DNA of 64,000 nucleotides from positions 65,742 through 129,741 of the forward strand of contig JAZKFB010000004.1 of NCBI GenBank assembly GCA_040386695.1, written 5' to 3'. The stretch comes from Verrucomicrobiota bacterium (lineage in GTDB: Bacteria; Verrucomicrobiota; Verrucomicrobiia; Verrucomicrobiales; V1-33). Position numbers and translations under genes: made by a program. The notes under the pieces were generated by a model, which saw only the letters and a program-made list of their open reading frames with translations, had not been told where the DNA came from and ran no database searches. This document shows positions 821-58,269 of the stretch, piece by piece. How positions within the stretch are numbered: position 1 is the first letter of the stretch; every line of letters begins with the position of its first letter.

Positions 821-3373
821 ATGAAATTAAACTCGCCTTTCCGGACTCCGCCGCTTCTTCTGTCAGTTTTGTTTCTGACATTCCCGGCCCACCGAAGCCG
901 GGGAGCTATTTTATATTCGGAAAATTTTGACGGGGTCACCCTCGGGGCGAACAAGGAGGAGGGCATCACCACCGGCGACGGCGAGCGGAAAGCCCAGACG
1001 GCCGTGTGGACCAAAACGGCGCCCGCAGGCTGGACGGTGGACGATTCCCAGATGCAGGGGCTCGGGGATCCGACCACCGACGGGGTCGTGGAATGGGCGG
1101 GCTGGAGCTTTACCGATCCCCGCTGGTGGGCCTACACCGCCGGCAATCAGAACCGCACGAGCTTCGTCAAAGGCGGCGGCGCCATCGCGGTGACGGATCC
1201 GGATGAGTGGGATGACCTGACCCGCAACGGTCCTTATAATTCCTATCTCGTTTCCCCGCGGATTCCCGTCGCCGCCGCGGCAGGCGCCGAACTCACTCTG
1301 AGATTTGACTCCAGCTGGCGTCCGGAGGTCCCGCAGAAAGCCGTGATTCTTGTCTCCTGGGACAATGGAGCTTTCACGGAAATCCTGCGCTGGGAGGGCG
1401 CGGGCGATAAGCTCCATCCCGAGGGCATGGAGAACGAGACGGTTTATCTGACCCTGACCCCGCCGCCCGGGGCGCAGAACGCGCAGTTCCGTTTCGGAAC
1501 GATCGACGCCGGGAACAACTGGTGGTGGGCCATCGACAACCTGGCGCTTTACAGCGGTGCCGAGCCCCCGCATTTTGAAACCCATCCGGTGAGTCCCGCG
1601 GACACCAACGTGAGTTCCTCCTTCATCGTGGGCACGGGAGCGGCGGTCGATCTGGCGGTCTCGATGGACGGCACTCCGGCTGCCGGGACGCTGCAGTGGG
1701 TGAGAATGAACGGAGCCACCCGGACCGTGCTCACCGGTCAGACCGCCGAGACGCTGTCCCTTCCCTCCGCCGTTCTCGCGGATTCCGGGCTTTACCTCTG
1801 CGAGGCCACCAACGCCGCCGGCACCATCAAAAGCGCGCCCGTGCTGATGACCGTGGCCGGCTTCACCGTCACGGAGCAGCCGCTGGCCCAGACAGTGGCC
1901 GCCACTTTCCCCGCAGCCTTCACGGTGGCGGCGGACAGCACCTTCGCGCTCACCTACCAGTGGTTCAAAGGACCCGAGGCCACGCGTGTGGAAATACCCG
2001 GAGCGACCTCCAGCACCCTGAGCTTCGCCGCCGCCGCTCTGGCCGATGACGGCGTCTACAGTGTCAGAATCAGCGGCACCACGGGCACCGTCCCGTTCAG
2101 CGGGTTCAGCAATGTGGCGCGGCTTTCCGTCCAGCCTCTGCTCATTGATCAGCCGCCGGCCTCGACGGAGGCCGCCCAGGGGGAGGCCGCCAGCTTCGAA
2201 GTCGTGGCCTCCAGCACCGGCACCCCGACCTATCAGTGGCTCTTCCGGGCCATCGGGCAGGCAGGTCCGGCGGCTCCCGTGGATGGGGCCACCGGCTCCA
2301 CTCTTTCCCTGACCTCCGCCTCACGTTTCGGCACGGGTTATTACAGTGTCAGAGTCACCAATCCGCTGGGATCGGTGACCAGTCCGGAAGCCAAGCTCAC
2401 CGTGCATGTGCCGCCTTCCACCACTGAAATTTTCAAGGAAAACTGGCAGAGCGTGGCCCTCGGGCCGAATGTGGAGGAGGGCATCCTCACGGGTGCCGGC
2501 TTCCCCGCGCCCCAAACCGCGGTGTGGTCCCCGGCCGCCCCCAATGGCTGGACCATCGACAACTCCGCCATGCCCGTGCCCTCCCCGGAAAATGTCAGCG
2601 GCACCGACGGCGTGAAGGAATGGTTCGGCTGGTCCTTTGCGGAGCCTGGCTGGTGGAGCACCACGGCCGGTGAACAGGGCCGCAGCGGCTTCTCCAAAGG
2701 CCTGGGGGATTCCGCGGAAACCGGCATCCCCGCCGTCGTGGCCATCGCCGACACGGATGAATGGGATGACCTCGCGCACACCGGCGGCGCCTTCAGCTCC
2801 GCTCTCATCAGCCCCTCCATTTCCCTGGCCGGCACCACTCCCGGCAGCGTGGTTCTGTCCTTCGATTCCTGCTGGCAGCGGGAAGGCAATATGAAGGCCA
2901 TCCTGGAGGTCTCCCTGGATGGCGGCCCTTATCAGCAGGTGCTGTTCTGGACCGACAGCGGTCCCGACACCCACGACAACAACACGGACGAAACGGTCAC
3001 CATTCCCATCAGCACCACCGCCGCCAACACCTCGTTGAAGCTCCGCTACAGCCTCGTGGACGCCACGAATAACTGGTACTGGGCGATTGATAACATCCAG
3101 GTCACCGCCGCCACCACCGCGGTGCCCGGCGTTCCTCCGGTCATCACCTCCATGAATTTCAACGCGGCCACCAAAGTGATCACCCTCAAATGGAAGTCCG
3201 TTCCGCAGAAGGCCTACAAACTCCAGTATTCCCAGAATCTGCAGACCTGGCAGACAGCCGTGCCGAACCTGACGGGCGCCGCCGGAGCGGAAACCGAGGT
3301 TTCCTCCGATGTGGACACGCTCTTCCCCACCCCGCCGGTGCCGGGCAAGCTGTTCTTCCGCATCAGCGAGTGA
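821..3373 (+). CDS. secreted multi-domain protein: two paralogous beta-sandwich-like domains flanking three Ig-like repeats, with a C-terminal FFRI module
   Basis: 850-aa ORF with ATG at 821 and a hydrophobic signal-like N-terminus (LLLSVLFLTFPA). Domain A (aa ~31-245, ends NNWWWAIDNLALY) and domain B (aa ~522-762, ends NNWYWAIDNIQVT) align to each other. Three repeats carry YQW...G(L/V/Y)Y...(T/S)N..G motifs typical of I-set-like Ig domains. Confidence 0.8.
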   Translation: MKLNSPFRTPPLLLSVLFLTFPAHRSRGAILYSENFDGVTLGANKEEGITTGDGERKAQTAVWTKTAPAGWTVDDSQMQGLGDPTTDGVVEWAGWSFTDPRWWAYTAGNQNRTSFVKGGGAIAVTDPDEWDDLTRNGPYNSYLVSPRIPVAAAAGAELTLRFDSSWRPEVPQKAVILVSWDNGAFTEILRWEGAGDKLHPEGMENETVYLTLTPPPGAQNAQFRFGTIDAGNNWWWAIDNLALYSGAEPPHFETHPVSPADTNVSSSFIVGTGAAVDLAVSMDGTPAAGTLQWVRMNGATRTVLTGQTAETLSLPSAVLADSGLYLCEATNAAGTIKSAPVLMTVAGFTVTEQPLAQTVAATFPAAFTVAADSTFALTYQWFKGPEATRVEIPGATSSTLSFAAAALADDGVYSVRISGTTGTVPFSGFSNVARLSVQPLLIDQPPASTEAAQGEAASFEVVASSTGTPTYQWLFRAIGQAGPAAPVDGATGSTLSLTSASRFGTGYYSVRVTNPLGSVTSPEAKLTVHVPPSTTEIFKENWQSVALGPNVEEGILTGAGFPAPQTAVWSPAAPNGWTIDNSAMPVPSPENVSGTDGVKEWFGWSFAEPGWWSTTAGEQGRSGFSKGLGDSAETGIPAVVAIADTDEWDDLAHTGGAFSSALISPSISLAGTTPGSVVLSFDSCWQREGNMKAILEVSLDGGPYQQVLFWTDSGPDTHDNNTDETVTIPISTTAANTSLKLRYSLVDATNNWYWAIDNIQVTAATTAVPGVPPVITSMNFNAATKVITLKWKSVPQKAYKLQYSQNLQTWQTAVPNLTGAAGAETEVSSDVDTLFPTPPVPGKLFFRISE

Positions 3374-13571: not shown

Positions 13572-15857
13572 TCAGGGAATTCTTTTCACCCGGTAGAAGA
13601 CTCTGGAAGTGCCCGCGGGCAGCGTGGTGTCCGTGAAACCGGCGGTGGCCCCGGCGGCGGTGACATTGGGCGTCAGGTCGTCCCATCTGGAAAAATCAGC
13701 CGTGCGCTGGACGGTGTAAACCGCCCCGGCCGTGGAGGGCCATGCTAGGGTGACCTGCCCGGCGGCGGGGCCCCGGACCAGCGAGGAGATCTCAAAGCCG
13801 GCGGAGACGGGCGGCGTGCCCGCGCCGTTGATCATGATGCTTTGGATCTCGCTCCGGCTGAGGGCTTTTTTATAAATGGCGATGTCGTCCAGCTTGCCGT
13901 CAAAAGGAAAACCCAGACCGTTGTCGTCGCCCGCTCCGAGATGGAGATTCAGGGAATAATTCGGAGTGTACTGCGTGGGGGCCGACCGGGAGGTGTCCAC
14001 AGCCGCGCTCTCGCCGTTGACCCACAGCGTTTTGGTGTCCGTGGCGGCATCGTAGGTGATGGCCAGATGCGTCCAGGAGCCGACCACCACGGCCGGACCG
14101 CTGACATCATCCCAGTTCACCACCCCCTGCCCTGTCCAGAACGCCCAGCGCCCGCCATCGGCGTTGTAAAGAATATAACCGTTGGTCTCTCCGCCGCCGC
14201 CGTGGACGCGGCTGGTGACCGGCGAGGCATATCCGCTGGTGCCGTCGGCTTTGGCCCACAGCGTGACCGTGAAGCTGGTGGGATTCAGCAGCGCGTCGAA
14301 AGGCACCTCAATGTGCCCGCCTTCCGTGAAATCCGCGGCGGCGCCGGTCGCGGCATTGGCTCCCGCCTCGGTGAAACTCACCGCGCCCGGAGCCGTGACC
14401 ACGCCGTTGAACCCGTTGCCGCTGGCGTCATCGGCATTCGCGTCCAGCGGCCACCACGCGACCAGCGGCTTGGCCACCGGCACCTCCGCGTGCAGCACCA
14501 CCGTGATATTCGGCGTCAGCGGATCATCGGTGCTGACCAGCATCCGGCTGACAAAGGATCCGTCCTCCAGCAGCGGATCAAACACCACCTCCACCGTCCC
14601 GGTCGCGCCGGGAGCGAGGGTTTCCGGGAATTTGGTGACCGTGAAGGCCGCCATATCCGGACCGGCGGGCGTGACGGCACTGACATTCAGAGGCAGGGCC
14701 GCCCCGTCGTTGCGCAGGGTGAAAGATTTGGTCAGCGTGCTGGTGCCGGCCGGAAGCGTTCCGAACTCCAGCCGCTCCGTCAGGGACACGACGCTGGGAT
14801 CGTGAATGAACCCCGTGACCGTCACCGGCTTCACGGGATTCACCGCTGAATTGCTGGTCAGCTCCAGAATGGTCTCCACCGCTCCGGAAACCCCGGCGGG
14901 ATTGAACGAGATTCTGACCACGCCCGTGCCGCCCGCGGCAATGGGACCCGGCAGGCTGACCACGGAGAAACTGGCCGCATTGCCTCCGCTGAAAGCCGCC
15001 GCCGTGATATTCAGCGCTTTGGTGGCCCCGCCATTGTTCAGGGTGATGTCAAAGGTCTGGACGGCCCCGGTGAGCGTGAGCGGCCAGGGACTTGGCACCA
15101 GCAGATTCGGATCGGTGGAGGTGTCGGGCTTGATGCCGTTGGTCATGACCTCCTGCACCTGCGCCTCCGTCAGGGCATTGTCCCAGAATCCGATATCATC
15201 CATGCGGCCATCCCAGTAAAAGTCCCCGCCCAGATCCGAGCCCGAGCCGAAATGCATGGCCCGCAGCACATTGGCGGAGATGCCGATGACATCATTCAGA
15301 ACCACCACGCCATTGAGCAGCATTTTCCGCGTGGTCGTGTCCGCATCGTAGGTGATGGCCACATGCGTCCAGGCATTCACGGCCACGGGTCCGGCATCAC
15401 GGTTGTTCCACTGTCCCGACGAGCCATTATTGCCCGCCCAGAAGGTCCAGTTGCCGGCGGCGTCATTGTAAATCATGGGACCGTTGGAGGTCGTGCCGTT
15501 GTCCTCGCGGTTGGTGAATGGCGAGCGGTAGGCCCCGCCGCCCGCCGCTGTGGGGAACGCCCAGAAAGCCAGGCTGAAACTGCCGGACCCGTTCTCGGCC
15601 TGGGTGCCGGGATTCAGGTCCGGGGTATAGGGAATGTCGATGTGGCCCGGACCCGGGAAGTCGGCGGAGGAGCCCGTTTTGCCATTGGCTCCGGATTGTC
15701 CGAACGTCACCGTCCCCACCACCGTGCCGTTGTGGCCGTTGCCGGTGGCGTCCAGCGCATTGGCGTCCAGCGGCCAGTGGGCCACCAGTCCGGCGGAGGC
15801 TCCGACTATTGACATCACGGTAAACCAGCAGGAAAACACCAGGAATTTCATAGGCAT
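13572..15857 (-). CDS. secreted protein with two LamG-like domains, Ig-like middle repeats and a C-terminal FYRV module
   Basis: Signal peptide after the ATG at 15857/15851 (MKFLVFSCWFTVMSIVGASAG). There is a duplicated LamG signature (LVAHWPLDANALDATGNGHNG / LVAWWPLDANADDASGNGFNG; WTHVAITYDA / WTHLAITYDA). Start position is uncertain (15917, 15857 or 15851). Confidence 0.8.
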   Translation of the reverse strand: MPMKFLVFSCWFTVMSIVGASAGLVAHWPLDANALDATGNGHNGTVVGTVTFGQSGANGKTGSSADFPGPGHIDIPYTPDLNPGTQAENGSGSFSLAFWAFPTAAGGGAYRSPFTNREDNGTTSNGPMIYNDAAGNWTFWAGNNGSSGQWNNRDAGPVAVNAWTHVAITYDADTTTRKMLLNGVVVLNDVIGISANVLRAMHFGSGSDLGGDFYWDGRMDDIGFWDNALTEAQVQEVMTNGIKPDTSTDPNLLVPSPWPLTLTGAVQTFDITLNNGGATKALNITAAAFSGGNAASFSVVSLPGPIAAGGTGVVRISFNPAGVSGAVETILELTSNSAVNPVKPVTVTGFIHDPSVVSLTERLEFGTLPAGTSTLTKSFTLRNDGAALPLNVSAVTPAGPDMAAFTVTKFPETLAPGATGTVEVVFDPLLEDGSFVSRMLVSTDDPLTPNITVVLHAEVPVAKPLVAWWPLDANADDASGNGFNGVVTAPGAVSFTEAGANAATGAAADFTEGGHIEVPFDALLNPTSFTVTLWAKADGTSGYASPVTSRVHGGGGETNGYILYNADGGRWAFWTGQGVVNWDDVSGPAVVVGSWTHLAITYDAATDTKTLWVNGESAAVDTSRSAPTQYTPNYSLNLHLGAGDDNGLGFPFDGKLDDIAIYKKALSRSEIQSIMINGAGTPPVSAGFEISSLVRGPAAGQVTLAWPSTAGAVYTVQRTADFSRWDDLTPNVTAAGATAGFTDTTLPAGTSRVFYRVKRIP

Positions 15858-16008
15858 GAACGCGCCGCGTCCGGCATGGACGTTGGCGGGCGGCTCCAGC
15901 TTCGCCGCAGAAGCCATGCCTTTCGATTTTAAATCTCCGCAGACGCGTAGATTCCTGATCCTGAGCCTTTTGCGCAGAACGGCGGAGTCCTGTGATCCAC
16001 CGTGTTTG

Positions 16009-20931: not shown

Positions 20932-22494
20932 ATGAACAATGAGGCTCCCGGCGGCAGCGCCAGTTATGATGTCGTGGTCATCGGCGGCGCGCTTTCCGGT
21001 GCCGCCACCGCCACCCTGCTGCTGCGCCACAATCCGGGAATCCGCGTGCTCATTGTCGAAAAATCCGCCACCCTCGGCCGGCGGGTTGGCGAGGCCACAG
21101 TGGAGATCAGCGGCTACTTCATGAGCCGCGTGCTGGGCATGACCCAGTATCTCAACGAGAACCATCTTGTGAAGCAGGGCCTGCGGTTCTGGTTCAAAAA
21201 CGAGGAGGTCACCAACGTCTCCGAAGCCAGCGAACTGGGCGCGAAATACCTCTCCCGCATTCCCTCCTACCAGCTCGACCGCGCCACCTTCGACGAGGAG
21301 GTCCTCCGCCGCGCCGTCGCCGCCGGAGCCGAGCTGATCCGCCCCGCCACCGTCTCCAATGTGGAGCTGAACGACGGCGGCCCGCAGTCGATGGAGATCA
21401 AACACGGCGACAGCACCCGGAAAATCACCACGCGCTGGATCGTCGACGCCTCGGGGCTCGCCGCCGTGCTGGCCCGCAAAAACGGCTGGTGGAAATCCAA
21501 CACCGAGCACCCCACGGCCGCCGCCTGGTCGCGCTGGAAAGGCGTCAAGGACTGGGACAGCCGCGAGCTGGCGGTGAAATATCCCGCCTGGTCCCGCGCC
21601 GTTTACGGCATCCGCAACACCGCCACGAATCACATCATCGGCGACGGCTGGTGGAGCTGGTGGATTCCTCTCAAAGGCGGCGATGTCAGCGTCGGATTCG
21701 TCATCGACCAGCGCATCGCCAGCTTCACCGAGGAGGGCGGCAAGCTCGGCGACCGCATCAAAGCTTTCCTCATGAAACACCCCGTCGCCCGCGAAATGCT
21801 GGCCGACGCCACCTTCTGCGAGGAGGACATGCACTGGCGGAAAAATCTGGCCTACTACAGCACCACCTTCGCCGGCGACGGTTTTGTGCTCGTGGGCGAC
21901 GCCGCCGCGTTCATGGATCCCTTTTACAGCCCCGGCATGGACTGGATCTCCTTCACCACCAGCAGCGCCGCCAATCTCATCACCCAGCAGCGCAAAGGCA
22001 AACCCATGGCCGGACGGGTCGTGGATTATAACCGCGATTTCCGCGTCAGTCACCGCCGCTGGTTCGAGTCCCTCTACAAGGACAAATACGAATACATGGG
22101 CGAATTCGACCTCATGAGCCTCGCCTTCCGCCTCGATCTCGGGCTGTATTACTGGGGCGTGGTCGAAGTGCCGTTCAATGAGGGCGAGGAGGCGCTTTTC
22201 GCCCCGCCCTTCTCCCCGCCCAGCGGCCGCCTTTTCGCGGCGCTCATGAGCACCTACAACCGCCGCTTCGCCAAAATCGCCCGCCGCCGCCGCCGCACCG
22301 GCACCCTCGGCCGCGCGAACGCCGGCAAGCGCCGCCTCATCCCCGGCTTCATGCTCAAGCGCAGCAATATGCTCACCCTCTTCCCCATGCTCGCCGAATG
22401 GGCCTGGCTGGAAATCCGGGAAGGCTGGCGCAGCTGGCTCGACGATTCCTCCCCCTACCCGGCTCCGGCCCCCCAGGCGAAAGCCAGCGCCTGA
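20932..22494 (+). CDS. flavin-dependent halogenase-like FAD oxidoreductase, paralog 3 (divergent)
   Basis: Motifs: VVVIGGALSGA (variant dinucleotide motif), RRVGEATVE, VKQG, WSWWIP, GDAAAFMDPFYSPGM. Has a long C-terminal extension with a basic and amphipathic tail. Confidence 0.8.
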   Translation: MNNEAPGGSASYDVVVIGGALSGAATATLLLRHNPGIRVLIVEKSATLGRRVGEATVEISGYFMSRVLGMTQYLNENHLVKQGLRFWFKNEEVTNVSEASELGAKYLSRIPSYQLDRATFDEEVLRRAVAAGAELIRPATVSNVELNDGGPQSMEIKHGDSTRKITTRWIVDASGLAAVLARKNGWWKSNTEHPTAAAWSRWKGVKDWDSRELAVKYPAWSRAVYGIRNTATNHIIGDGWWSWWIPLKGGDVSVGFVIDQRIASFTEEGGKLGDRIKAFLMKHPVAREMLADATFCEEDMHWRKNLAYYSTTFAGDGFVLVGDAAAFMDPFYSPGMDWISFTTSSAANLITQQRKGKPMAGRVVDYNRDFRVSHRRWFESLYKDKYEYMGEFDLMSLAFRLDLGLYYWGVVEVPFNEGEEALFAPPFSPPSGRLFAALMSTYNRRFAKIARRRRRTGTLGRANAGKRRLIPGFMLKRSNMLTLFPMLAEWAWLEIREGWRSWLDDSSPYPAPAPQAKASA

Positions 22495-22842: not shown

Positions 22843-25800
22843 ATGCGTATGATTATTCAGTTTGGACAACCTGAACGGAATAAACCCCTTATCCAGTCTC
22901 CCGTCATGAGAAAAGTTATACCGAAATTCTTAATTCACAGGCGCATACCGGAATCACAGTCAGGACTTTCAAGCGGAGCGCCTCCGCAGGCCGTCTGGCT
23001 TGCGGCCCTCGCCTCCCTTGCCGCAGGCCCCCTTCAGGCAGCCCTCACTCCCTACTGCTGGATGCGGCTGGGGGAGACGGGCAGTGTGAGAACGGATTCC
23101 AGCGGCGCGAACCGCACCTTCACTTCCGCCTTTTCAACTTCCTCGACGGGCGCCGGCCTCGGAGGGCAGGATTCCTCCGTCATTGTGCCCACCGGAGTCG
23201 GCGGCCCACTCGGCGCGGCGGGCGGTCCGGTCAGCGCCATCTCCTCCCGCTGGGGATCCCTGAACACCCGGACTTCGGGCATGTGGATTGAAGGACCCAA
23301 CGGCGCCGTGGGAGTGGACCAGTGGAATCTGCCCGCCACCAACTGGGTCATGGAATGCTGGCTCCTGCCGGTGGAGAATGGCACCACCAAAAGCAGCGGC
23401 TCCAACCAGGCCATTTTCGTCGGAGCGGGGTCCAATAACAATGGCGCACAGGCGGGTGGTTTGAGATTCAGGATTGCCCCCGATCTTGACGTGGATGGAC
23501 TTCCCACCGGACCCCAGACCATTTTCCTGGAGGATATCGCCGCCACCCAGCCGCATCCTCTGAACACTCCGGAAAGCCCCCGCGATCCCATTCCTTTAAG
23601 GGTCGGCACTCCGGTGCCGATGGACACCACCAAATGGATGCATGTGGCCGCCGTGAATGACAATGGTTCGGTGACCTTTTATGTGAACGGAGTGGCCAGC
23701 GGAACCCCGGTCACAGGCACCAGCGCGCCCCACGGATCCCCCACCATCGGCTCCGGTCCCGACACCCGCCTGCCCTTCAATGGTTATCTGGACGAAATCC
23801 GCTTTTCCACCTTTGCCCCCGGCGCCTTTACCGTCAGCGATCTCCTGCTCCGGCCTGCCGGCCCGGCGGTCCTCGCTCAAATGCCGGCCACCCTGTCCGT
23901 GTGGGAAGGCGGGGCCGCTCCTTTTGAAGTGGGAATCGCCTATGATGAAACCGCCACTTATCAATGGAAGCTTGGGGGCGCGCCACTGCCCGGAGCGACC
24001 TCCGCCGAATACCTGCTGAGTTCGGCGGCTCCCGCCAACAGCGCCGGCGTTTACTCCAACGCCATCACCAGCGGCGGGGTGACCGTCACCAGCTCCAATG
24101 CCACTCTGACAGTCGTTCCGGTCAAAACGGCGGACACCAATTTCTACCGGACCTCCGTCCAGGCCGAAGCCTCGCTGCTGGCCTTTTTCCCCGTGGACGG
24201 CGACACCGGCACCACGGTCACCAACACCAAAAACGCGGCCCTCAACGGCACCCTCGCGGCAGGCGTTTCCTACGACGGCCGCACCGACCGCTCACTGGGT
24301 CAGCGGGCGCTGCGGTTCAAAGGAAATGCCGGCGTCGATCTGCCGGCCAATGCCACTCTGGAGTTTCCCGGCGGCACCGGCACCATTGAAGCCATCGTTT
24401 ATCTCCAGCCTGCGGGCAGTCAGGGAGAAGCCACTCTCTTCTCCCTCGCGGATGGTGATCTCTCTTATTACAAAGTCAGCGCGGGGCTCGGCGGAGGTTC
24501 CCTGACCTTTACCAATGACGCCCTGGAACAGGCCGTGACCTGGTCCGTGCCCGCAAATCTCCGGAACCGCTTTGCCCACGTCGCCTTCACGTTTTCCAGC
24601 GTCCCGCCCGTCGCCATCGGCGATCCCGTCACCTATGCGGTCACCGCTTACGTTGACGGAGAATCTCTCGGTGCCAAACCCTTTGTCTCGTTTGGGAACA
24701 ACCCGGGATTGCCGGCGCATATCGGCTCGGCCGGTCTGAACGGCGATGAACTCGCCCAGTCTCCCTGGCAGGGAACCATTGATGAGCTGGCGGTTTACAG
24801 CACCGCCCTGCCCGCCACCACCATCGCCGTCCACAATTCCCGCTTCAAATTCGGCACCGCGGTTGCCCCGCCGGAAATCACCACTCAGCCCACCGGCACC
24901 CGGAATCTGCTTGCCGGCGGCGCTCCCGCCTTCCGTGTGGTCAGCACCGGCACCGCCCCCCTCAGCTATAAATGGCAGCGGAACGGCGCGGATATCAGCG
25001 GCAATCCCACGGCCACCACCTCCACTCTGGTCCTGAACAACTCCACGGCCGCCATGTCCGGCGCCTACACCGTGACGGTGACCAATCCCCAGGGATCGGA
25101 CTCCAGCGATCCTTTCACCGTGAATTTCGCCGCCCCTCCGGACACTTATTCCGGATTCGTGCTCGCGGACAATCCCACCGCTTACTGGCGTGTGAATGAA
25201 GCCTCCGGCACGGTCATGAAAGACTACGCTGGCGGACTGGATGGAACGTATTCCACCACGGCCACCCTCGGCACCGCCGCCCAGGCCTCCATGGCCCCGG
25301 ACACCGCCCTCCGGCTCACGGCCACCGGCACTCCCATTTCCAATGCCACGGTGCCCTTCACCCCGGTGCTCAATCCCAGCGGAGCGTTCTCCCTGGAATG
25401 CTGGGTGAAACCCACGGCCTCCGGGGACACCGCCCGCGCCGTGATCTCCGCTCAGAACCGCAATGCCGGGCGCTCCGGTTACGTCCTCTACCAGGGCCTC
25501 AACGCGGGAGCCGGCTGGGAAGTCCACCTCGGCGTCGCGGAAAGCGTGAAATTCATCCAAAGCGAGGTCCCCGCCGTCGCGGGCCGCTGGGACCATGTGG
25601 TCATCACCTGGAACGGCTCCGACACCGCCCGGCTTTATGTCAATGGCGTCGAGGAGGCCACCCACGTGAACGCCACCGCCGCCGCCGCCGAGCAGGGACC
25701 TTTCCGTCCCAATCTCGAAGCGCCTCTGGAAATTGGCACCCGATTCGGCGGGGGCATCCCCTGGGACGGCACGGTCGATGAAATCGCCTTCTACAACCAG

Positions 25801-27165
25801 GCTCTTACCCTGGAGCAGGTCCGCAAGCACCAAAGCATCGCCTGGGTGCCCGCCACCATCACGCAGGCACCACCCGCCACCGCCACCGCTCTGGAAGCGG
25901 GGAACCTGACCCTCACCGCGCAGGTGAGCGGCTTCCCCAATACCTACCAGTGGATGAAAAACGGCGTCGCCCTGGAAGTGGATGCCGCCCATTACCCGCA
26001 GGGAGTGACCTCCCCCTCGCTGGTCATCGCCGGCGTCGTCCAGGCGGACGGCGGAGCTTACCAGCTGGTGATCACGAACCCTCTGGGCAACCAGAGCACC
26101 GCAAATACCACGGTCACTTTCGCTGCGGACACCAGCCCTCCCTCAGTGGCCTATGCCACAGGTGATGGCAGTCTGCGCCGGGTGCGGGTGGGTTTTAACC
26201 GTGCGGTCACCCCCGAAACCGCCGGTCTCGCCGCCAACTACACCCTGACCGGCGGCCTCAAGGTCAGCAGCGTGGTTTTGACGGCCGGGGCCTCCGTGGT
26301 GGATCTGATCCTGACCAGTCCCATGACTCCCGGCGCCACCTATGGTCTGAGTGTCAGCGGTGTCAGAGATGAGCGCATCAACCATAATCTCATCGCGGCC
26401 AACCTCACCCCATTCAGCGGTCTGAGTCTCACTCCGGGAGTTCTCTCTCTTGATTTCTATGGAGGTATCACAGGGAACAACGTGGAGGATCTGAAAGGCG
26501 ACACCCAGTTCCCGGACGGGGTTTACACCAGCACCACGCTGACCAGCTTCAGCACCCGGGCACTGACCGGCGGGGACCTGGCCACTAATCCGGCCTACGC
26601 CGCCCTCGGCCTGGGTGGCAACTACGGCACTCATGTTTACGGCTGGATCACACCGGCGGTGAGCGGGAACTATACCTTCTTCCTCAACAGCGATGACGGC
26701 TCGGAACTCAATCTGAGCACCGACAGCAATCCCGCGAACGCTGATATGATCGCCTACATGTCGGTGTGCTGCACAGGCTGGAAGGAACCGGCGGCGAGCG
26801 TGGTGGAGACCTCCTCCCCCATCGCTCTGGTGGCCGGGAAAAGCTATTACATCGAAGCTTACCAGAAGGAAGGCGGCGGCGGCGATTACCTCGAAGTCGC
26901 CTGGCGCCTCGCGGGCGACACCACCGCGGTGGGCGCGCTTCAGCCCATTCCGGCCAGCGTCCTCTCCGGCTATGCCACCATCCCGCTGGTCGGAATGGGG
27001 CAGCCCGTGGTGGCCAATGGCCAAGTGGCCATTACCTGGGGTGGAACGGGCAAACTGCAGCAGTCCGACGATCTGATTATCTGGGCCGACGTGTCCGGCA
27101 ATCCCGTCAGCCCTTATGTGAGCCCAGTCGCCGGACGCAGGTTCTACCGCCTGGCTGTCCCCTGA
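22843..27165 (+). CDS. giant secreted adhesin-like protein (LamG-like x3, Ig-like repeats, Big-like, PA14-like, C-terminal FYRL module)
   Basis: 1440 aa. LamG-type signatures (WMHVAAVNDNGSVTFYVNG, WDHVVITWNGSDTARLYVNG). Ig-like YQW/YKW repeats. PA14-like segment (GNYTFFLNSDDGSELNLS...YYIEAYQKEGGGGDYLEVAWR). An alternative ATG lies at 22906. Confidence 0.85.
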   Translation: MRMIIQFGQPERNKPLIQSPVMRKVIPKFLIHRRIPESQSGLSSGAPPQAVWLAALASLAAGPLQAALTPYCWMRLGETGSVRTDSSGANRTFTSAFSTSSTGAGLGGQDSSVIVPTGVGGPLGAAGGPVSAISSRWGSLNTRTSGMWIEGPNGAVGVDQWNLPATNWVMECWLLPVENGTTKSSGSNQAIFVGAGSNNNGAQAGGLRFRIAPDLDVDGLPTGPQTIFLEDIAATQPHPLNTPESPRDPIPLRVGTPVPMDTTKWMHVAAVNDNGSVTFYVNGVASGTPVTGTSAPHGSPTIGSGPDTRLPFNGYLDEIRFSTFAPGAFTVSDLLLRPAGPAVLAQMPATLSVWEGGAAPFEVGIAYDETATYQWKLGGAPLPGATSAEYLLSSAAPANSAGVYSNAITSGGVTVTSSNATLTVVPVKTADTNFYRTSVQAEASLLAFFPVDGDTGTTVTNTKNAALNGTLAAGVSYDGRTDRSLGQRALRFKGNAGVDLPANATLEFPGGTGTIEAIVYLQPAGSQGEATLFSLADGDLSYYKVSAGLGGGSLTFTNDALEQAVTWSVPANLRNRFAHVAFTFSSVPPVAIGDPVTYAVTAYVDGESLGAKPFVSFGNNPGLPAHIGSAGLNGDELAQSPWQGTIDELAVYSTALPATTIAVHNSRFKFGTAVAPPEITTQPTGTRNLLAGGAPAFRVVSTGTAPLSYKWQRNGADISGNPTATTSTLVLNNSTAAMSGAYTVTVTNPQGSDSSDPFTVNFAAPPDTYSGFVLADNPTAYWRVNEASGTVMKDYAGGLDGTYSTTATLGTAAQASMAPDTALRLTATGTPISNATVPFTPVLNPSGAFSLECWVKPTASGDTARAVISAQNRNAGRSGYVLYQGLNAGAGWEVHLGVAESVKFIQSEVPAVAGRWDHVVITWNGSDTARLYVNGVEEATHVNATAAAAEQGPFRPNLEAPLEIGTRFGGGIPWDGTVDEIAFYNQALTLEQVRKHQSIAWVPATITQAPPATATALEAGNLTLTAQVSGFPNTYQWMKNGVALEVDAAHYPQGVTSPSLVIAGVVQADGGAYQLVITNPLGNQSTANTTVTFAADTSPPSVAYATGDGSLRRVRVGFNRAVTPETAGLAANYTLTGGLKVSSVVLTAGASVVDLILTSPMTPGATYGLSVSGVRDERINHNLIAANLTPFSGLSLTPGVLSLDFYGGITGNNVEDLKGDTQFPDGVYTSTTLTSFSTRALTGGDLATNPAYAALGLGGNYGTHVYGWITPAVSGNYTFFLNSDDGSELNLSTDSNPANADMIAYMSVCCTGWKEPAASVVETSSPIALVAGKSYYIEAYQKEGGGGDYLEVAWRLAGDTTAVGALQPIPASVLSGYATIPLVGMGQPVVANGQVAITWGGTGKLQQSDDLIIWADVSGNPVSPYVSPVAGRRFYRLAVP

Positions 27166-30317: not shown

Positions 30318-30616
30318 GGACAAACGGGTGATTTTCCGGGTAGATATATCGTTGAACGGCTTTCGCCGCAATGAGATGCGGCATATGGCTCATTCTTCGC
30401 TGCTGCCAGGCTGGCCTCGGCTCCATGGACCAAACTATGCAATCCACGAAGAGCCTTCACGTCCCAGGGGAGCCTGCGCTGGGCGTGATAAGCCTTGTGC
30501 GCCTCAATAAGCCGGGCTTCCAGCGCCTCAAGGGACGGCATGGGATTGAGACGAACAACCGGCTCACGCGCAGGGTCGTTTCCTGGATCGTTCCCCGAAC
30601 TCGGAATACTCGTCAT
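30176..30616 (-). CDS. possible small ORF translationally coupled (ATGA) to the upstream giant gene; C-terminal half doubtful
   Basis: The ATG at 30616..30614 overlaps the TGA at 30615..30613 of gene 30613..34842. The first ~80 codons look coding. The remainder overlaps 29679..30317 in a frame with poor third-position GC. Confidence 0.3.
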   Translation of the reverse strand: MTSIPSSGNDPGNDPAREPVVRLNPMPSLEALEARLIEAHKAYHAQRRLPWDVKALRGLHSLVHGAEASLAAAKNEPYAASHCGESRSTIYLPGKSPVCPCSAVFSPFLCGCWFSRFPFLTPRGRIYRPSGHPASLPHRVVAVFSR

Positions 30617-33600
30617 TCACTTGGTTTGCTGGTCAGGAATTTGAGGAGTTCGAGGGCTTCGCGTTCGGGGAGGGATTCGAGGAGGCCGGGGGGCATGAGG
30701 GACTGCTCCAGCTTCTGACGTTCCCTGATGGCGGATTTGGGAATGGTGAGGGTTTCCGTGATGGTGCGGAGGGTGAGGGAATCCGGCTTGTCGGCGGCGA
30801 TGCTGCCGGAGAGGACCGTGCCGTCGGTTTTGGTGACGATGACCAGCTGGAAGTCCTCGCCGATGACGGCGTTGGGATCGACGATGTTTTCGAGGAAGTA
30901 ATCGATGCCGTTGCGCCAGGAGCCCGCGAGGTCAGGGCCGAGTTTGCGCTCCGTTCCGCCGCCCATGGTGTGGCAGGTGGCGCAGACGCGGTCGAAAACC
31001 AGCTGTCCCTTGGCGCTGTCGTAGGCCCAGAGGGGAGCTTCGCTGAAGGTCTTTTTCAGGCGGGCGATGCTGGCTTTGCCCTCGGCGCTGGACTCGTTGA
31101 ATTTGCCCCAGACTTTCTCCAGGCGGGCGTCGAGCGCGGGGTCCTTGAGGTTGCGCATCTGGCGGATGTGCAGGGTGGTCAGCTGTTTTTTGTCGAAGCC
31201 GCCGTCCTCCATGGATTTCACCAGAGCCAGGGCGTAAGTGGGGCGGCTGATGAGCGTGGCCAAAGCGGAGGCGGCATCGGCGGGTGAGAAGTCTTTCATG
31301 CCCGCGAGGAGACGGGCGGCGATGGCGGGATCGTTGGAGCGGGTCAGCTGCGGGAGGACGGCGGAGCGGAAAGCGGGGTCGTCGAGGAGTCCGGCAAAAA
31401 CGGGCAGAGCTTCGGGATCGCCGGTGCGGCGCAGTATGTCGAAGGCCGAGCGGCGTTCGGCGCGGGGCAGCGAGGCATTGGCCAGCACGGTCCTCATGCG
31501 GGCGAGCACGGCTTTGTCTCCGAAGATGGCGGAGAGCTGCTCGGTATCGGCGCGCACAGCGGCGTCCTGACTGGAGCTGAGGCGCGACTCCACGGTCGGC
31601 CAGGAGGCGGGCATGGGCAGGGAGGCTTCGGATTGCAGCGCGAAGGCGGCGATGCGCACCGCGCGCTCGGCGGCGGGAGGCGGCAGGAGGGCGAGGGTGG
31701 AAGTCAGAGCCTCGCGACCGGCGGGTGTCAGCGCGGCATACCAGCGGATGGAGTCGGCGAGGTCCGTGAGGGAAGTTTTGGAGGCGATGGCCAGGGCCTG
31801 CGGGAAGTCGGAGGCGGCGGTTTTGGCGAAGCCACTCCAGATGAGTTTGGGCAGAAAACGGTCGCTGGCATCCTCGCTGTGGGCGGAGAGGGAAGTGGTC
31901 AGCGGCCAGACATCAGCGGCCGGCAGGAAGGGAAGCGCGGAGGCCAGGGCCAGGCGGACGACGGGCGAGGGATCGGTCTTCGCCAGATTCGTCAGGGTGG
32001 CGGCATCCAGGCGCGGACTGCCGGCTTTTTCCGTGGCCAGCTGCACGGCCCAGGCGCGGACAGTTTCGGCGGGATTGGCGAGGGCTTTGGTCAGGCGGGC
32101 GGCGCTGAGGTTGCCGGTCTGGTGCAGCGACCAGAGGCCGCGCAGGGTGGTGGAGGCGTCGGCGGAATCGGCGAGAGATTCCAGGGCGGCCACGGTTTCG
32201 GCGGCGAGGGGAGCGGCGGCGGCGCGTTCCTGCAGGAGGCGGCGGGCGGTGCGGCCATACCACTGATTTTTGTGAGTCTGAAGCGCGGCGAGCTGGGCTT
32301 CGGTGGCGGAGGAAAGGTCGGCTTTCACCGGCTTATAGGTCGCCGCCCAGGACATGCGGTAAACGCGGCCATTGCTGCGGTCCCACTTTTCCTCAATGGG
32401 CGTGTGGCAGTGCTGCTGGTCGCACCAGTCGATGATGTAAACCGCGCCGTCCGGGCCGGTCTGGAGATCGACAGCGATGTAGCGCGGATCCGGCGTGTAA
32501 AGCATGTCATAACCGGCGTGCATGGTCTCGTAGCCGGAACCCTGGGGCACATTCACCTGATGATTCATCTGATGGCCGTGGAGGTTGTGGGTGAAGAGGT
32601 GGTTGCGGTAAATATCCGGCCAGTTGTCGCCCTGGTAGATGAGGGTGCCGACGTGGGAATGACCGCCATAAACAGTGGTGGTGCCCGGCTTGCCCGCGCC
32701 GCCCTCGCCGCTGTCATATTTGGCGGCGGCGGGCAGGTAGTTTTTCAGGCCGGGGGCGAAATCGGTGCCGACAGGAGAGATGTAAGGAGCGTAGTTGCCG
32801 TTCGCCTGATTCCAGAACTGTCCGCCGCGGATGACGTGGGTGGTGCCGCCGCCGCCGTAGAAACTGCGGCAGTGGGTCATGAAAAGATGACCGGCATCGT
32901 TGTAGTCGAGACCCCACTGATTGCTGCCGCCGCTGGCGAAGATTTCAAATTCCTTCCGCACGGGATGGAAGCGCCAGACCCCGGCGTTCATGAGCAGGCG
33001 CTGATTTTCGGGCGTGCCGGGTTTGCCGACGAGGGATTTGGTGAAGACGCCCTGACAGCCGTAGAGCCAGCCGTCGGGTCCCCAGGTGAAACTGTTGAGG
33101 GTCTCGTGCGTGTCCTGGTAGCCCCAGCCATCCAGGAGCACCTCGGCGGGACCATCGGGTTTGCCGTCGTGGTTTTTGTCAGGGATGAACAGCAGCTCCG
33201 GCGCGGCGCCGATGTAAACGCCGCCGAAACCGACTTCGATCCCGCTGGCGAGATTGAGTCCCTCCATGAAAACCGTGCGGGTTTCGAAGTTTCCGTCGCC
33301 GTCCCTGTCCTCCAGAATGACGATGCGGTCGCGGCCTTTGCCTTCGGGCTGCTTGTTGGGATAACTGATTCCCTCCAGCACCCAGAGCCGGGCTTTTTCA
33401 TCCATGCAGAAGGCGATGGGCTGCACGACCTCGGGCTCGGCGGCGATGAGCTGGGCCTGGAATCCGTCGGTCAGTTCCATGCCGGCCACGATTTTCTGAG
33501 CCTCGGCGTTGTTGGCCGGCGTGGGTTTGGCGGGGTTCGGGCGGAGGTGCCAGAGGACGGGGCTTTGGCTCACGCGGCTGCCGGTGGCGGCTTCGCGCTC

Positions 33601-34842
33601 GGGCGGGAGGTCGTGGAAAACGAAGTCGTCAAAATTGATATGCCCCCAGCCGTTTTTCGCGCGGTCGATGAGGCGGACAAAGGCTTTCTGTCCGGCCAGA
33701 GGGCGCATGTCCACGATCTCACGGTGCATGTCCTCCTCGAAACGTCCGGCGGCGGTGTGGAAGACCTTGCCGGTGTCCGCGTTCACGATTTCCGCGCGCA
33801 CGGCGGCGACTTCCCCACCGCCGCCAATGAGAAAACTGGCCCAGGGATGCGTGACGGAAAAGGGGGCGGAAGTCAGGACGCCGGTGCCGGCGTCGTTTTG
33901 GGTGGACTCGTAGTTCCCGACCCAGAAATTGCCCACGTGACGGCTGTATTGACCGGGCTTGCGGCGCTGCACGGTGTCGCCTTCGACCGGCTGTCCGGCC
34001 CAGCCGTCGCCCTCGGCGGTCCAGTCCTCGAGGTTGCCTTTTTCAAAGCCGAGGTTCAGCACTTTGCCTTTGTCGTCGGTGGCCGGGAAGGAGGGCGTGA
34101 CCGTCGGCGCGGCCGCAGCGGCGGACGCCAGGGCGGGCGGGAGCGCGGTTTTGCCGAGGGTTTTCAGACCGATGTTTTTGAACTGCACCTTTGCGGGCCC
34201 GGGACCGGCGTGAAGCTGGAAGGCGATGCGGCCGCTGTAGTCGGCGGCTTTGGTTTCGTGGTCGTCGAGCGCGCCGAAGAACACGCCGTTGACCCAGACC
34301 TCCATGTGCGGCCCGGCGGCGCGGATGCGGTAGTGATTCCAGTCACCGGCTTTGGGAACGCTTCGGAAGGAGACGGCCTCGGCGAAAGGATCCACCCAGC
34401 GGCGGCCATCCGGCGAGATGGAGACGCGGGTGCCGCGCTCCATGATCAGCTCGCGGCCGTGCTCGTCGTAGATGCGGCCCAGCCATTCCGCGCCGGCGTC
34501 GAGATCGGCCTGGTAGCCGATGGCGTGACCGTCGTCGGCGCGCCTGCTGCGGATCTGCACGCCGCTGTTGGCCGCGGGGCCGCCGGTGATGCGGTAGTCC
34601 AGCTCCAGCTCGAAATCATCGACCTCGCCTTTCCAGAAAATCCATTCGTTGGTTTTCAGGTCCGCGCCGTTGGCGATTTCTCCGGTGATCGCGCCGTCCT
34701 CAATGCGCCACATCCCCGGCGTGCCCTCCCAGCCGTTGAGCGTGGAGCCGTCGAAAAGCGACTGCGTCTCCGCCGCCCGGCTGGACGGCAGCACGGAGAG
34801 GGAAAACGCGAGGATGAGCGCGGGGCGGGAGAGCGGAATCAT
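30613..34842 (-). CDS. giant DUF1080-like + lectin-like + putative membrane-bound-dehydrogenase (beta-propeller) + HEAT repeats + C-terminal cytochrome c (PVC-type heme-binding CxxCH protein)
   Basis: 1409 aa with a signal peptide. N-terminal LFDGSTLNGWEG...WRIEDGAITG (DUF1080 pattern). The dehydrogenase-domain region includes LIAAEPEVVQPIAFCMDEKARLWV. Ala/Leu-rich HEAT-like repeats follow, then a C-terminal CATCHTMGG heme motif. Confidence 0.9.
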   Translation of the reverse strand: MIPLSRPALILAFSLSVLPSSRAAETQSLFDGSTLNGWEGTPGMWRIEDGAITGEIANGADLKTNEWIFWKGEVDDFELELDYRITGGPAANSGVQIRSRRADDGHAIGYQADLDAGAEWLGRIYDEHGRELIMERGTRVSISPDGRRWVDPFAEAVSFRSVPKAGDWNHYRIRAAGPHMEVWVNGVFFGALDDHETKAADYSGRIAFQLHAGPGPAKVQFKNIGLKTLGKTALPPALASAAAAAPTVTPSFPATDDKGKVLNLGFEKGNLEDWTAEGDGWAGQPVEGDTVQRRKPGQYSRHVGNFWVGNYESTQNDAGTGVLTSAPFSVTHPWASFLIGGGGEVAAVRAEIVNADTGKVFHTAAGRFEEDMHREIVDMRPLAGQKAFVRLIDRAKNGWGHINFDDFVFHDLPPEREAATGSRVSQSPVLWHLRPNPAKPTPANNAEAQKIVAGMELTDGFQAQLIAAEPEVVQPIAFCMDEKARLWVLEGISYPNKQPEGKGRDRIVILEDRDGDGNFETRTVFMEGLNLASGIEVGFGGVYIGAAPELLFIPDKNHDGKPDGPAEVLLDGWGYQDTHETLNSFTWGPDGWLYGCQGVFTKSLVGKPGTPENQRLLMNAGVWRFHPVRKEFEIFASGGSNQWGLDYNDAGHLFMTHCRSFYGGGGTTHVIRGGQFWNQANGNYAPYISPVGTDFAPGLKNYLPAAAKYDSGEGGAGKPGTTTVYGGHSHVGTLIYQGDNWPDIYRNHLFTHNLHGHQMNHQVNVPQGSGYETMHAGYDMLYTPDPRYIAVDLQTGPDGAVYIIDWCDQQHCHTPIEEKWDRSNGRVYRMSWAATYKPVKADLSSATEAQLAALQTHKNQWYGRTARRLLQERAAAAPLAAETVAALESLADSADASTTLRGLWSLHQTGNLSAARLTKALANPAETVRAWAVQLATEKAGSPRLDAATLTNLAKTDPSPVVRLALASALPFLPAADVWPLTTSLSAHSEDASDRFLPKLIWSGFAKTAASDFPQALAIASKTSLTDLADSIRWYAALTPAGREALTSTLALLPPPAAERAVRIAAFALQSEASLPMPASWPTVESRLSSSQDAAVRADTEQLSAIFGDKAVLARMRTVLANASLPRAERRSAFDILRRTGDPEALPVFAGLLDDPAFRSAVLPQLTRSNDPAIAARLLAGMKDFSPADAASALATLISRPTYALALVKSMEDGGFDKKQLTTLHIRQMRNLKDPALDARLEKVWGKFNESSAEGKASIARLKKTFSEAPLWAYDSAKGQLVFDRVCATCHTMGGGTERKLGPDLAGSWRNGIDYFLENIVDPNAVIGEDFQLVIVTKTDGTVLSGSIAADKPDSLTLRTITETLTIPKSAIRERQKLEQSLMPPGLLESLPEREALELLKFLTSKPSE

Positions 34843-35681: not shown

Positions 35682-35909
35682 GCCTCAGCCTGCTCCGGGT
35701 CGGCGGTCAGTGACAAGAAAAATGCGGTCCAGGAAATTACGGCGGCGGCGGAGCTTGCCAGCGGCGGGGAAAACAGGCAGCTTCCCGCGCCATGAACCAT
35801 CCGTTGCGTGCCGCCCGTCGATTTGCTGGATCAGAAATCGGACGAAGAGCGGCGCCCCGCAGCGGCCCGGGTGGAGCAGGCGGCCCTTTCCCCGGAGGGG
35901 AAACAGATA

Positions 35910-36113: not shown

Positions 36114-36136
36114 TTTCTGTGAAGCCTCCGGCTTCC

Positions 36137-39103: not shown

Positions 39104-39293
39104 CCTTTTCTCCGGCTGCGGCAAAACCAGTAAATATCCGGACAGTGCCGTTGCGTAAAAATTGCGTAACGCGCCGTATTTTGATGACTAATTCGCGGAA
39201 ACCATTTAGTTTCACCGAGTTTTCATCCATTGCGGCTACAGCCCGCAGTGGAGTTCCTCCTTGGAGGGACCGGCACCACAACCCGCTCCTGTC

Positions 39294-40904
39294 ATGGTTT
39301 TCACCTCCTTCGCTCTCCTGTCCCGCCGGTTTTTTCCGGCAGGGGCCGCCGGACTTATGATGGGCTCCGCCCTGGGGGCCGAGGATTTGCTTGTTAACAA
39401 CTTCGACACCGCCGCCGAAGTCCCCCAGTGGCCGACGGACGAATATCCGTCCAAGCCGAACAATTTTTGGGAAAGATGGTGGGGGGACGCAATCATCGAC
39501 GGGCAGTCCATGTCCTTTGACGCCACGATGGACGCAGCCGGCAGTGCGGCGTCCGGATCCATGAAAGTGGTGGTGGATTTCGACAGGCAGACGGCGAACC
39601 ATGAGCAGTTTTCCGTCGTCCGGTATCTGAATCCCTCACCCATTGACGGCAGCCAGTATCTCAGTCTGGAAATGGACATCCGGTACAAGCCCGGATCCGT
39701 GACCCGGCCGGACGGCACTTTTGGCTACCTTGAAGTGGGATTCTCGACTGAGGCTCCCCTCAATGGCCAGATCTACGCCCGGCAGATGGCGGTCCCGGCT
39801 TCGGCCGCCGACGGGTGGCTGCATATCTCCGCCCCCATCAACAAGACGGTGGCGAATATTGAAAGGATCAGCGGCATCCATTTCAAAATGTGGATGGGCG
39901 GAGCCACTGACCCCATCGGTAACAGCACCTTCTGGGTGGACAATATCCATCTGAAAGCTCCGGAAGTGGTGGAGGAAGCCCCCATCCCGGTCATCCGGGT
40001 GGAGCCCGCCACTCCCGGCCTGCATCTTGTCTCCAGCGGGGCCGGCATTTATGACCGGCAGACGCTGCGGACCACGACGCCGGAGTATTCCTGGGTGGGG
40101 CGGACTCAGCCGGTGACTTATTCCTTCACCATTAAGGAATTTCCTCCGACGGCCGGCTACACGGCTTTCCTGTACCTGACGCCGGGCAGTGGTCTGGGCA
40201 CCGGATTAAACTATGTGGATTACAGCGCCGACAACTGTCTGGTCCTTTTTCTCAATAACAACGCGGACGGCAGCGGCGGCATGAGACTGGCCTACAAGGA
40301 CAGCGCGCCCAACAGTAACGGTCAGGCCGGGCATGATTATTGGACCGCTGATGACGGCACCGGCAAAGGAGGATCCCTCGCTTTTGTCAACGGAGGCAGC
40401 ATTCTGGGCACCTGGTCCCTTACTTTCGAAAACAGCACCAGCGCCACCATCACCTCGCCCGACGGACAGACGGCATCCGCCACCCTGCTGCCGGAAACAG
40501 CGGCCAAATATGCCAATCCCCTGTATGCCTATTTTGGCGCGGTGCCGGGGGATGCCGCCCGGCAGGGACAGACGGCCATTTTCTCGCGGATCAAAATCAC
40601 GGGCACGGAAAATCCCATCGACGAGGATTTCTCGGTGCTGCCCTTCAGCCCGCTTCTCGAAAAATCCGCCTCCGACGCCAATGGCATCCAGCAGGTGACC
40701 CGGGGGGACACTCCCTTCTGGGTCAAGTGGACCCTGCCGGCCGTGGGTTATAAACTTCAACAAAGTCTTGACCTTGGAGTCACCGGCTGGCAGGACATGA
40801 GCGTGACCAACGCCCTGACTGTCAAAGGCGAACGCTGTGTCCTTCTGAATGCGGTGGATCTTCCGGATCCCAAGCGGGGCTTTTTCCAGCTTTTGAAACC
40901 CTGA
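39294..40904 (+). CDS. secreted protein with an N-terminal CBM-like beta-sandwich and a C-terminal FFQL module
   Basis: ATG at 39294 (the track start at 39261 is a TTG). Signal-like MVFTSFALLSRRFFPAGAAGLMMGSALGA. The ending ...TFWVDNIHLKAP is typical of carbohydrate-binding-module-like domains. Confidence 0.7.
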   Translation: MVFTSFALLSRRFFPAGAAGLMMGSALGAEDLLVNNFDTAAEVPQWPTDEYPSKPNNFWERWWGDAIIDGQSMSFDATMDAAGSAASGSMKVVVDFDRQTANHEQFSVVRYLNPSPIDGSQYLSLEMDIRYKPGSVTRPDGTFGYLEVGFSTEAPLNGQIYARQMAVPASAADGWLHISAPINKTVANIERISGIHFKMWMGGATDPIGNSTFWVDNIHLKAPEVVEEAPIPVIRVEPATPGLHLVSSGAGIYDRQTLRTTTPEYSWVGRTQPVTYSFTIKEFPPTAGYTAFLYLTPGSGLGTGLNYVDYSADNCLVLFLNNNADGSGGMRLAYKDSAPNSNGQAGHDYWTADDGTGKGGSLAFVNGGSILGTWSLTFENSTSATITSPDGQTASATLLPETAAKYANPLYAYFGAVPGDAARQGQTAIFSRIKITGTENPIDEDFSVLPFSPLLEKSASDANGIQQVTRGDTPFWVKWTLPAVGYKLQQSLDLGVTGWQDMSVTNALTVKGERCVLLNAVDLPDPKRGFFQLLKP

Positions 40905-49908: not shown

Positions 49909-50041
49909 TCCGTAAGTAAGACCACGAAACTGCCCGCCCGCGCCCCGCAATGCAACCGCCACCTTCCCCGCAGGCGGACGGCCATTTCCCGGTGCCGCCG
50001 CCATGGCGCGCTGTGGCGGGGGCCGCTTTATTTCTTAAAGC

Positions 50042-58178: not shown

Positions 58179-58269
58179 CTCCTGCTTCGCCGCCATTTGG
58201 CTCCTTATATATTAGTACCGTCCGGCCGCCCTCCCTCCCTTGGCTGAAACTAAATTTTCAAAACCGACC

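Follow-up and report, generated by a model that had tools for sequence, protein, structure and literature searches.

A C-terminal beta-sandwich module on diverse exported proteins of Verrucomicrobiota: a candidate terminal targeting or retention domain

The C-terminal domains (CTDs) of type IX secretion system (T9SS) cargo in Bacteroidota (Por_Secre_tail, PF18962/TIGR04183) are terminal beta-sandwiches of ~70-100 aa found on many unrelated exported proteins, and the genes of this cargo are unlinked to the machinery genes. PEP-CTERM (PF07589/TIGR02595), which also occurs in Verrucomicrobiota, and other tripartite signals are likewise C-terminal, numerous in each genome and attached to diverse exported proteins. 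The Verrucomicrobiota abound in soil, water and gut, and the enzymes and adhesin-like proteins that they export make up very large sets; the route by which these reach the cell surface and are retained there is poorly understood. Here we describe a module of 60-80 aa that forms the C-terminus of four proteins (p1 to p4) encoded in a 64,000-nt stretch of contig JAZKFB010000004.1 from a Verrucomicrobiota bacterium (hereafter the window), and that throughout the phylum terminates a large and diverse set of exported proteins. Its fold is a variant of the known fibronectin type III (FN3)-like sandwich, and its logic parallels that of the known C-terminal sorting domains. Based on its position, we tentatively read it as a retained terminal targeting or retention domain (an address or anchor) used phylum-wide.

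A first-pass annotation of the window had proposed that four secreted giants, otherwise different from each other, end in an alignable module. All four open reading frames and their quoted tails read as described, and the likeness of the tails is confirmed. A hidden Markov model (HMM) built from 56 family members, all from outside the window, was run on all 1091 six-frame segments of the window; every domain match with an independent E value below 1 fell on one of the four claimed C-termini, and no fifth copy was found. The E values were 1.9e-23 for p2, 2.6e-14 for p1, 1.6e-5 for p4 and 0.012 for p3. Leave-one-out HMMs built from window sequences only recovered p1 (1.7e-5) and p2 (2.3e-6), with p4 marginal (0.026) and p3 not significant (0.7-8.8). 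The p3 module is the weakest member of the four, a shortened and divergent copy in which ~10 mid-module residues are missing, and a p3-related fragment (P0001, 81% identical across the aligned tail) retains the same tail. The C-terminal ends of the modules stand as first annotated; their starts do not, as the HMM envelopes begin 21 to 45 nt further upstream (Table 1). Two trivial origins were ruled out: recent 3'-end gene conversion within the window, since the modules are only 27-34% amino-acid identical to p1, and an artefact of reading frame extension, since orthologues with 37-77% overall identity retain the module.

Only one of the four host proteins, which range from about 540 to 1440 aa, deserves to be called a giant. 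Their architectures are diverse, although p2 and p3 both contain LamG domains and p1 and p3 both contain Ig domains. In p1, a signal peptide is followed by two ~220-aa unannotated domains flanking Ig repeats (Pfam: Ig_3/I-set), with the module last; the body of p2 consists of two Laminin_G_3 domains and HYDIN/DUF1573-type Ig domains, that of p3 of three Laminin_G_3 domains, Ig and PA14, and p4 has no Pfam or NCBIfam match anywhere in the whole protein. Residues 371-450 of p2 match the NCBIfam choice-of-anchor D model (NF012200; 54.7 bits against a cut-off of 45), and its orthologues carry the NCBI name "choice-of-anchor D domain-containing protein". As this domain class was named after its co-occurrence with alternative C-terminal anchor signals, we count the membership of p2 in favour of a targeting or retention role. 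At 100% identity, p2 matches an NCBI protein of a "Verrucomicrobiota bacterium" metagenome-assembled genome (MAG); orthologues of p2 were found in Akkermansiaceae, Verrucomicrobiales and Roseibacillus.

Further details of the hosts were seen in passing. In the NCBI entry identical to p2 (747 aa), the start is set at Met35 of the longest reading frame, which cuts off the hydrophobic core of the signal peptide; a start at Met21 or Met23 gives a canonical one (MPMKFLVFSCWFTVMSIVGASAG), and the public start is probably mis-called. The two copies of the ~220-aa domain of p1 (window 905-1570 and 2408-3130, + strand) are 41% identical (E 4e-56), end in "NNW[WY]WAIDN" and give only a sub-threshold Reelin_subrepeat-B match in Pfam; a similar ending, "...SIDNIEVTD", forms the C-terminus of p2 paralogues of 938-940 aa that lack the module (P0251, P0262-P0264). 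The N-terminus of p4 (window 39294-39390, + strand; MVFTSFALLSRRFFPAGAAGLMMGSALGA) holds an S-R-R-x-F motif resembling a twin-arginine (Tat) signal, while p1 to p3 look Sec-type.

Table 1. Positions of the host genes and module copies in the window, and of the proteins with an N-terminal module in other loci.
Feature	Position (window, unless a locus is given)	Strand	Remarks
p1 host gene	821..3373	+	850 aa; open reading frame list, translation and Pfam
p2 host gene	13572..15917	-	781 aa in longest reading frame form; likely start Met21/Met23 (gene then about 13572-15857)
p3 host gene	22843..27165	+	1440 aa; open reading frame list, translation and Pfam
p4 host gene	39261..40904	+	547 aa; likely start ATG at 39294
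p1 module	3119..3370	+	HMM envelope reaching last codon; tail ...GKLFFRISE-stop
p2 module	13575..13817	-	HMM envelope; tail ...SRVFYRVKRIP-stop
p3 module	26977..27162	+	HMM envelope; shortened copy; tail ...GRRFYRLAVP-stop
p4 module	40665..40901	+	HMM envelope; tail ...KRGFFQLLKP-stop
N-terminal-module protein	L021:10131-11693		then pentapeptide repeats
N-terminal-module protein	L023:6133-7515		then pentapeptide repeats
N-terminal-module protein	L079:9863-11122		then FGE-sulfatase domain
N-terminal-module protein	L076:9749-20194		then >3300 further residues

To place the module in genomes, one genome per species was scanned using the consensus of the commonest ("YRLQYK") subtype as seed, giving 80 loci (1.26 Mb). 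Nearly all of these are from Verrucomicrobiota MAGs (Limisphaerales, Pedosphaera, Chthoniobacter(ales), Luteolibacter, Prosthecobacter, Verrucomicrobiales and contigs labelled Akkermansia); a few lie in bins with other names, where mis-binning is possible. A six-frame HMM scan of the loci identified 110 module-bearing reading frames; 102 of these stop 0-5 residues after their last copy, most often directly at its end (0). The same holds for 25 of the 30 non-seed frames. The distance from F-Y-R to the stop is 4 or 5 residues in 81 of 100 cases, and the final residue is Pro in 46% of module C-termini. Of 98 p2 homologues, the most remote at 37% overall identity, 85 have the module 0-1 residue from the C-terminus, and in 74 p2 orthologues its conservation matches that of the remaining protein (45% against 46% identity). 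The extreme C-terminal placement seen in the window is upheld, and the module is not a mostly internal one.

Module genes occur at ~30 per Mb in the non-seed flanks, and the window itself holds four in 64 kb; overall, some 30-60 genes per Mb end in this single unannotated domain. The density suggests a hundred or more module genes per genome, to an order of magnitude and with the reservation that seed flanks may be enriched. A similar abundance per genome is known from established sorting-domain families. Strict terminal placement on very diverse exported cargo, many paralogous hosts per genome and conservation at the level of orthologues are, in combination, the marks of known sorting and anchoring domains; the module shows all three.

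The first-pass annotation had also supposed a beta-sandwich, which is borne out by an AlphaFold2 model of the p2 module (21-sequence alignment; mean predicted local distance difference test, pLDDT, 87.8; predicted TM-score 0.73). The model has six strands, the last of which, F-Y-R-V-K-R-I, ends one residue short of the C-terminus. The p3 module was modelled with five strands at a pLDDT of 69.7 overall and about 80 for residues 21-75. A Foldseek search of the PDB with the p2 model found nothing at E<=1e-3; the strongest of the weak matches were to the FN3 domains of FN3con, tenascin, TENCON and integrin beta4 (query TM-score, TMq, 0.5-0.63), and no T9SS CTD was among the 50 PDB fold matches listed. 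A profile search of PDB sequences returned marginal matches only, to discoidin/CBM32 and FN3 chains, the best being to the discoidin domains of Paenibacillus glucanase/chitosanase (2rv9, 4zy9; E about 3.5e-4, profile positions 11-64). The tails of p1 to p4 have no Pfam or NCBIfam match even at E<=1, and of 60 family modules scanned to the same threshold none was assigned to any model of either database, fn3 included; nine gave sub-threshold F5_F8_type_C_2 matches (best E 0.008). A generic FN3 identity, the refutation that the annotation had itself named together with a lack of positional bias, was rejected at the sequence level, as neither the four tails nor the 60 modules match Pfam fn3 at E<=1; canonical fn3 was detected elsewhere, internally in the module protein L045 and in P0003.

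A distant resemblance to FN3 domains in fold and motif, and to discoidin domains in one stretch, is nevertheless traceable. Like Pfam fn3 (PF00041), the module appears to be a small Greek-key beta-sandwich, with a parallel order of motifs ("..V.L.W..", "Y.v.y", "W", "Y.frV"), and the module profile weakly matches FN3 chains in the PDB and true fn3 arrays. It differs from fn3 in being shorter (60-80 aa with six predicted strands, where the FN3 fold has seven), in that the chain stops right after the "FYRV" strand, and in being strictly terminal where bona fide fn3 in the same protein is internal (L045). With the discoidin/F5_F8_type_C/CBM32 domains, which are eight-stranded sandwiches of ~130 aa, it has a ~50-residue stretch in common ("V.L.W......Y.iq.S.D....W..v"), but aligns over part of the domain only, with matches below the curated thresholds of PF00754 and PF22633. 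These partial matches point to a "Y-x-[LIV]-x-x-S-x-D-x-x-x-W" hairpin apparently common to both sandwich families, and the module is best described as an FN3-like sandwich with this hairpin that lies outside both curated families. In eight proteins (P0027, P0032, P0044, P0046, P0049, P0063, P0065 and P0075), module profile positions of about 8-51 match the last discoidin strands, which end in "..YGYSLWEFEVYG".

The resemblance to FN3, weak but consistent, is what would be expected if the module were a structural domain only: a compact FN3-like cap, spacer or stabiliser that has become C-terminal through easy domain shuffling at 3' ends. We regard this explanation as possible, if slightly less likely than the reading preferred below. 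Against it, the module is not recognized as fn3, more than 90% of the proteins end with it and have no residues beyond its strand, and it is as conserved as catalytic or binding parts. Ordinary Ig/FN3 spacers are typically internal, and Pfam fn3 and Ig domains in the very same proteins are internal too.

As to novelty, the annotation had known of no assigned function, and Pfam, NCBIfam and the PDB indeed provide no model or entry for the module. Literature searches for a verrucomicrobial C-terminal domain, the motif strings and sorting signals found no relevant description in the library searched, and both the family and its phylum-wide terminal rule appear undescribed.

The size of the family depends strongly on the search. 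A word-indexed homologue search found 2 proteins from the four modules and 22 from 60 modules, and 24 of 24 short homologues end with the module. When 1.84 billion cluster representatives were searched exhaustively with the profile, 5764 of them scored E<=1e-3, some cross-hits included, and 201 scored E<=1e-10. The top scores are cross-hits to genuine fn3 arrays (P0003: Pfam fn3 E 1e-124); such arrays, and discoidin tails that match partially and ~20 aa from the domain end, were excluded from the family. When the best 150 proteins were re-scanned locally, the last copy ended 0-4 residues before the C-terminus in most, with an F-Y-R-like motif within the last 12 residues in 110 of 150, usually as "..QRFYRVxLxP". 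Many of these 150 proteins carry tandem arrays of 2-8 copies with a period of 70-80 aa, in which the internal copies have the RFYRV strand as well, with a short Pro-containing linker behind it. Arrays dominate this ranking because scores are summed over copies; in the genome loci, 104 of the 110 module-bearing frames have a single copy, and about 5% of proteins are tandem.

Exceptions to the terminal rule are few. A small minority of four proteins carry the module right behind an N-terminal signal peptide (Table 1), and two proteins (P0014, P0016) have copies between YDG/MBG domains in addition to the terminal one. The N-terminal-module genes of L021 and L023 sit directly downstream of a gene with a C-terminal module. 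Two further irregularities look like frameshifts, possibly pseudogenes or assembly errors: in L073 (1114-2334) the module is followed by Arg-rich out-of-frame sequence, so that this "internal" match appears to be a frameshifted gene, and in L002 (9278-10445) a four-copy tandem array continues in another frame. The repeat-unit behaviour of the arrays, with their regular period and short Pro-containing linkers, and the placement at either end or between domains in some proteins, are points in favour of a purely structural domain.

Tandem, between-domain and N-terminal copies also speak against a strict C-terminal signal, and bear on whether the module is kept or removed. In one alternative, it would be a cleavable secretion signal, a sandwich recognized by a dedicated outer-membrane translocation or attachment system of Verrucomicrobiota and removed or exchanged on the surface in the manner of the T9SS. 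Much of the logic of T9SS CTDs is matched: a small C-terminal beta-sandwich, mostly in single copy, on diverse cargo, encoded by many genes per genome that are unlinked to machinery, and with a tightly fixed distance from F-Y-R to the C-terminus. Against this, the module matches neither Por_Secre_tail (no PF18962 or TIGR04183 match at E<=1) nor any other sorting-domain model in Pfam or NCBIfam, the listed PDB matches include no T9SS CTD, the phylum is another one, and copies in tandem, between domains or at the N-terminus hardly suit a signal that would be read from the C-terminal end. Neither the window nor the 80 loci showed a candidate translocon, nothing like the T9SS machinery (PorK/L/M/N, SprA, PorU/V) was seen within the 64-kb window, and no distinctive composition, cleavage or linker motif was found in the 20 residues upstream of the module, which is joined to the preceding domain by a very short Pro-containing linker. 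We consider a cleaved signal unlikely. The same low standing applies to the wider proposal that the module could be the cargo tag of a Verrucomicrobiota-specific outer-membrane secretion or surface-attachment pathway, a T9SS-CTD analogue serving about a hundred or more proteins per genome. PEP-CTERM also differs in form: the module is a folded beta domain and has no signature motif, no transmembrane helix and no basic tail. In p1 to p4 the last residues form a beta-strand (...[FY][FY][RQ][ILV]xx(x)), not a hydrophobic helix, and no PEP-CTERM model matches. We favour a retained binding or anchor module over a cleaved C-terminal signal because tandem, between-domain and post-signal-peptide N-terminal copies occur and because no conserved cleavage or linker motif lies upstream.

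The cargo is as varied outside the window as inside it, in agreement with the first-pass annotation. It includes Peptidase_S8 and Peptidase_S13 (the latter with a canonical internal fn3 in addition), the nuclease/phosphatase-family domain Exo_endo_phos, LamG, Ig, PA14, CBM_6, DUF11 and He_PIG, and further Calx-beta, Lamin-tail (LTD), YDG/MBG, TSP3 and PKD domains. Signal-peptide-like N-terminal segments are visible by eye in all four window proteins, of which a crude rule-based test flags p1 and p2 only. In the genome loci this test was positive for 65% of complete module frames and 39% of other frames of >=250 aa (odds ratio 2.9, p 1.7e-5). The co-occurrence with signal peptides that the annotation had proposed to check is thus seen as an enrichment by a crude rule, and its refuting case of cytoplasmic hosts did not arise. 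Like a T9SS CTD, the module lies at the extreme C-terminus of diverse signal-peptide-bearing cargo, the signal-peptide part of this statement resting on that crude enrichment.

The proposal of the first-pass annotation, a tag for sorting, secretion or surface anchoring, is thus partly supported. Taken together, it is possible, and to us the preferred reading, that the module acts as a retained terminal domain for targeting or retention. On this view it is an independently folding, six-stranded FN3-like sandwich of ~70 aa that forms the last domain of diverse exported proteins, with the chain stopping 4-5 residues past the conserved F-Y-R, where the last strand ends. The cargo would cross the inner membrane via Sec or Tat, after which the common terminal domain may bind an envelope partner (a surface glycan, lipopolysaccharide, or an outer-membrane or surface-layer protein) so that otherwise unrelated enzymes and adhesin-like proteins would be targeted to the cell surface or held there. 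Fold, family, spread over the phylum, strict terminal placement, cargo diversity and conservation among orthologues are established by the results above, whereas targeting or retention we infer from position; retention rather than cleavage, and any binding by the module, are equally conjectural. Several points weigh against this proposal. The conserved residues (W, Y-x-L-Q-x-S-x-D-L-x-x-W and R-F-Y-R-V) could all be structural, and accretion of domains at 3' ends can by itself produce a positional bias. Our view of the taxonomic spread rests on seeding with one subtype consensus and is biased towards the "YRLQYK" subtype, and the signal-peptide rule is crude and too strict, having missed p3 and p4, which are export-like by eye. 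Lastly, there was no conserved non-cargo partner gene among 909 reading frames from the 80 loci, clustered with the module masked.

The lack of a partner also sits well with a structural domain, for which no machinery need be found. We take it as uninformative rather than negative, because cargo genes are unlinked to machinery genes in known sorting-domain systems as well. The recurrent neighbours were propeller-type histidine (sensor) kinases in 11 loci, LytTR response regulators in 7 and acetyl-CoA synthetase in 6, and proteins with a prepilin-type N-terminus formed two clusters, found near module genes in 5 and 4 loci. The latter could fit a further explanation, that the module is an export-pathway determinant which serves recognition or chaperoning in a general pathway such as type II secretion (T2SS) or a Sec-associated one; such genes are very abundant in genomes of the Planctomycetes-Verrucomicrobia-Chlamydiae (PVC) group, and their proximity is therefore uninformative. 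Precedents exist in Pel3, where loops from both the Fn3 and the catalytic domain jointly form a composite T2SS secretion signal (PMC7949064), and in Xanthomonas CbsA, where a C-terminal FnIII domain is required for SecB interaction and efficient export and is missing from the secreted form (PMC9190976). Both concern canonical Fn3 domains, and Pel3 a composite signal and not a universal tag. The Tat-like SRRFF N-terminus of p4 also speaks against a Sec-chaperone role, and we find this explanation quite improbable.

Whichever function applies, the module provides a sequence handle for predicting the exported and surface proteome of the phylum. It could serve as bait for an envelope partner or translocon and might be engineered into a display or secretion tag; at minimum, it defines a family of thousands of clusters that merits a Pfam or NCBIfam model.

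The surroundings of the module genes in the window are typical of a PVC-type chromosome, including ordinary metabolic genes. Trp-halogenase-like FAD-dependent enzymes are encoded near p2 and p3 (16009-17340, - strand, and 20932-22494, + strand). Two divergent genes (30613-34842, - strand, and 35792-39103, + strand) encode giant proteins with DUF7133, HEAT and cytochrome c domains, the former with an additional 3-keto-disaccharide hydrolase domain; neither has the module, and such domain sets are typical of PVC membrane-bound dehydrogenase-like proteins. A Schlafen AlbA_2/HATPase_c_4 protein is followed by a ParA-like AAA_31 ATPase at 43870-46067 (+ strand). An HlyD-family adaptor, an ABC ATPase and two MacB-type FtsX permeases lie in a row at 50120-54557 (- strand), forming a MacB-like efflux or export operon, with a large TPR protein downstream of it (47350-50004). 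Finally, a PSCyt1/PSD2-5/PSCyt3 (DUF1585-1595) gene and a DUF1552 (HXXSHH) gene are adjacent at 56166-59664 (+ strand).

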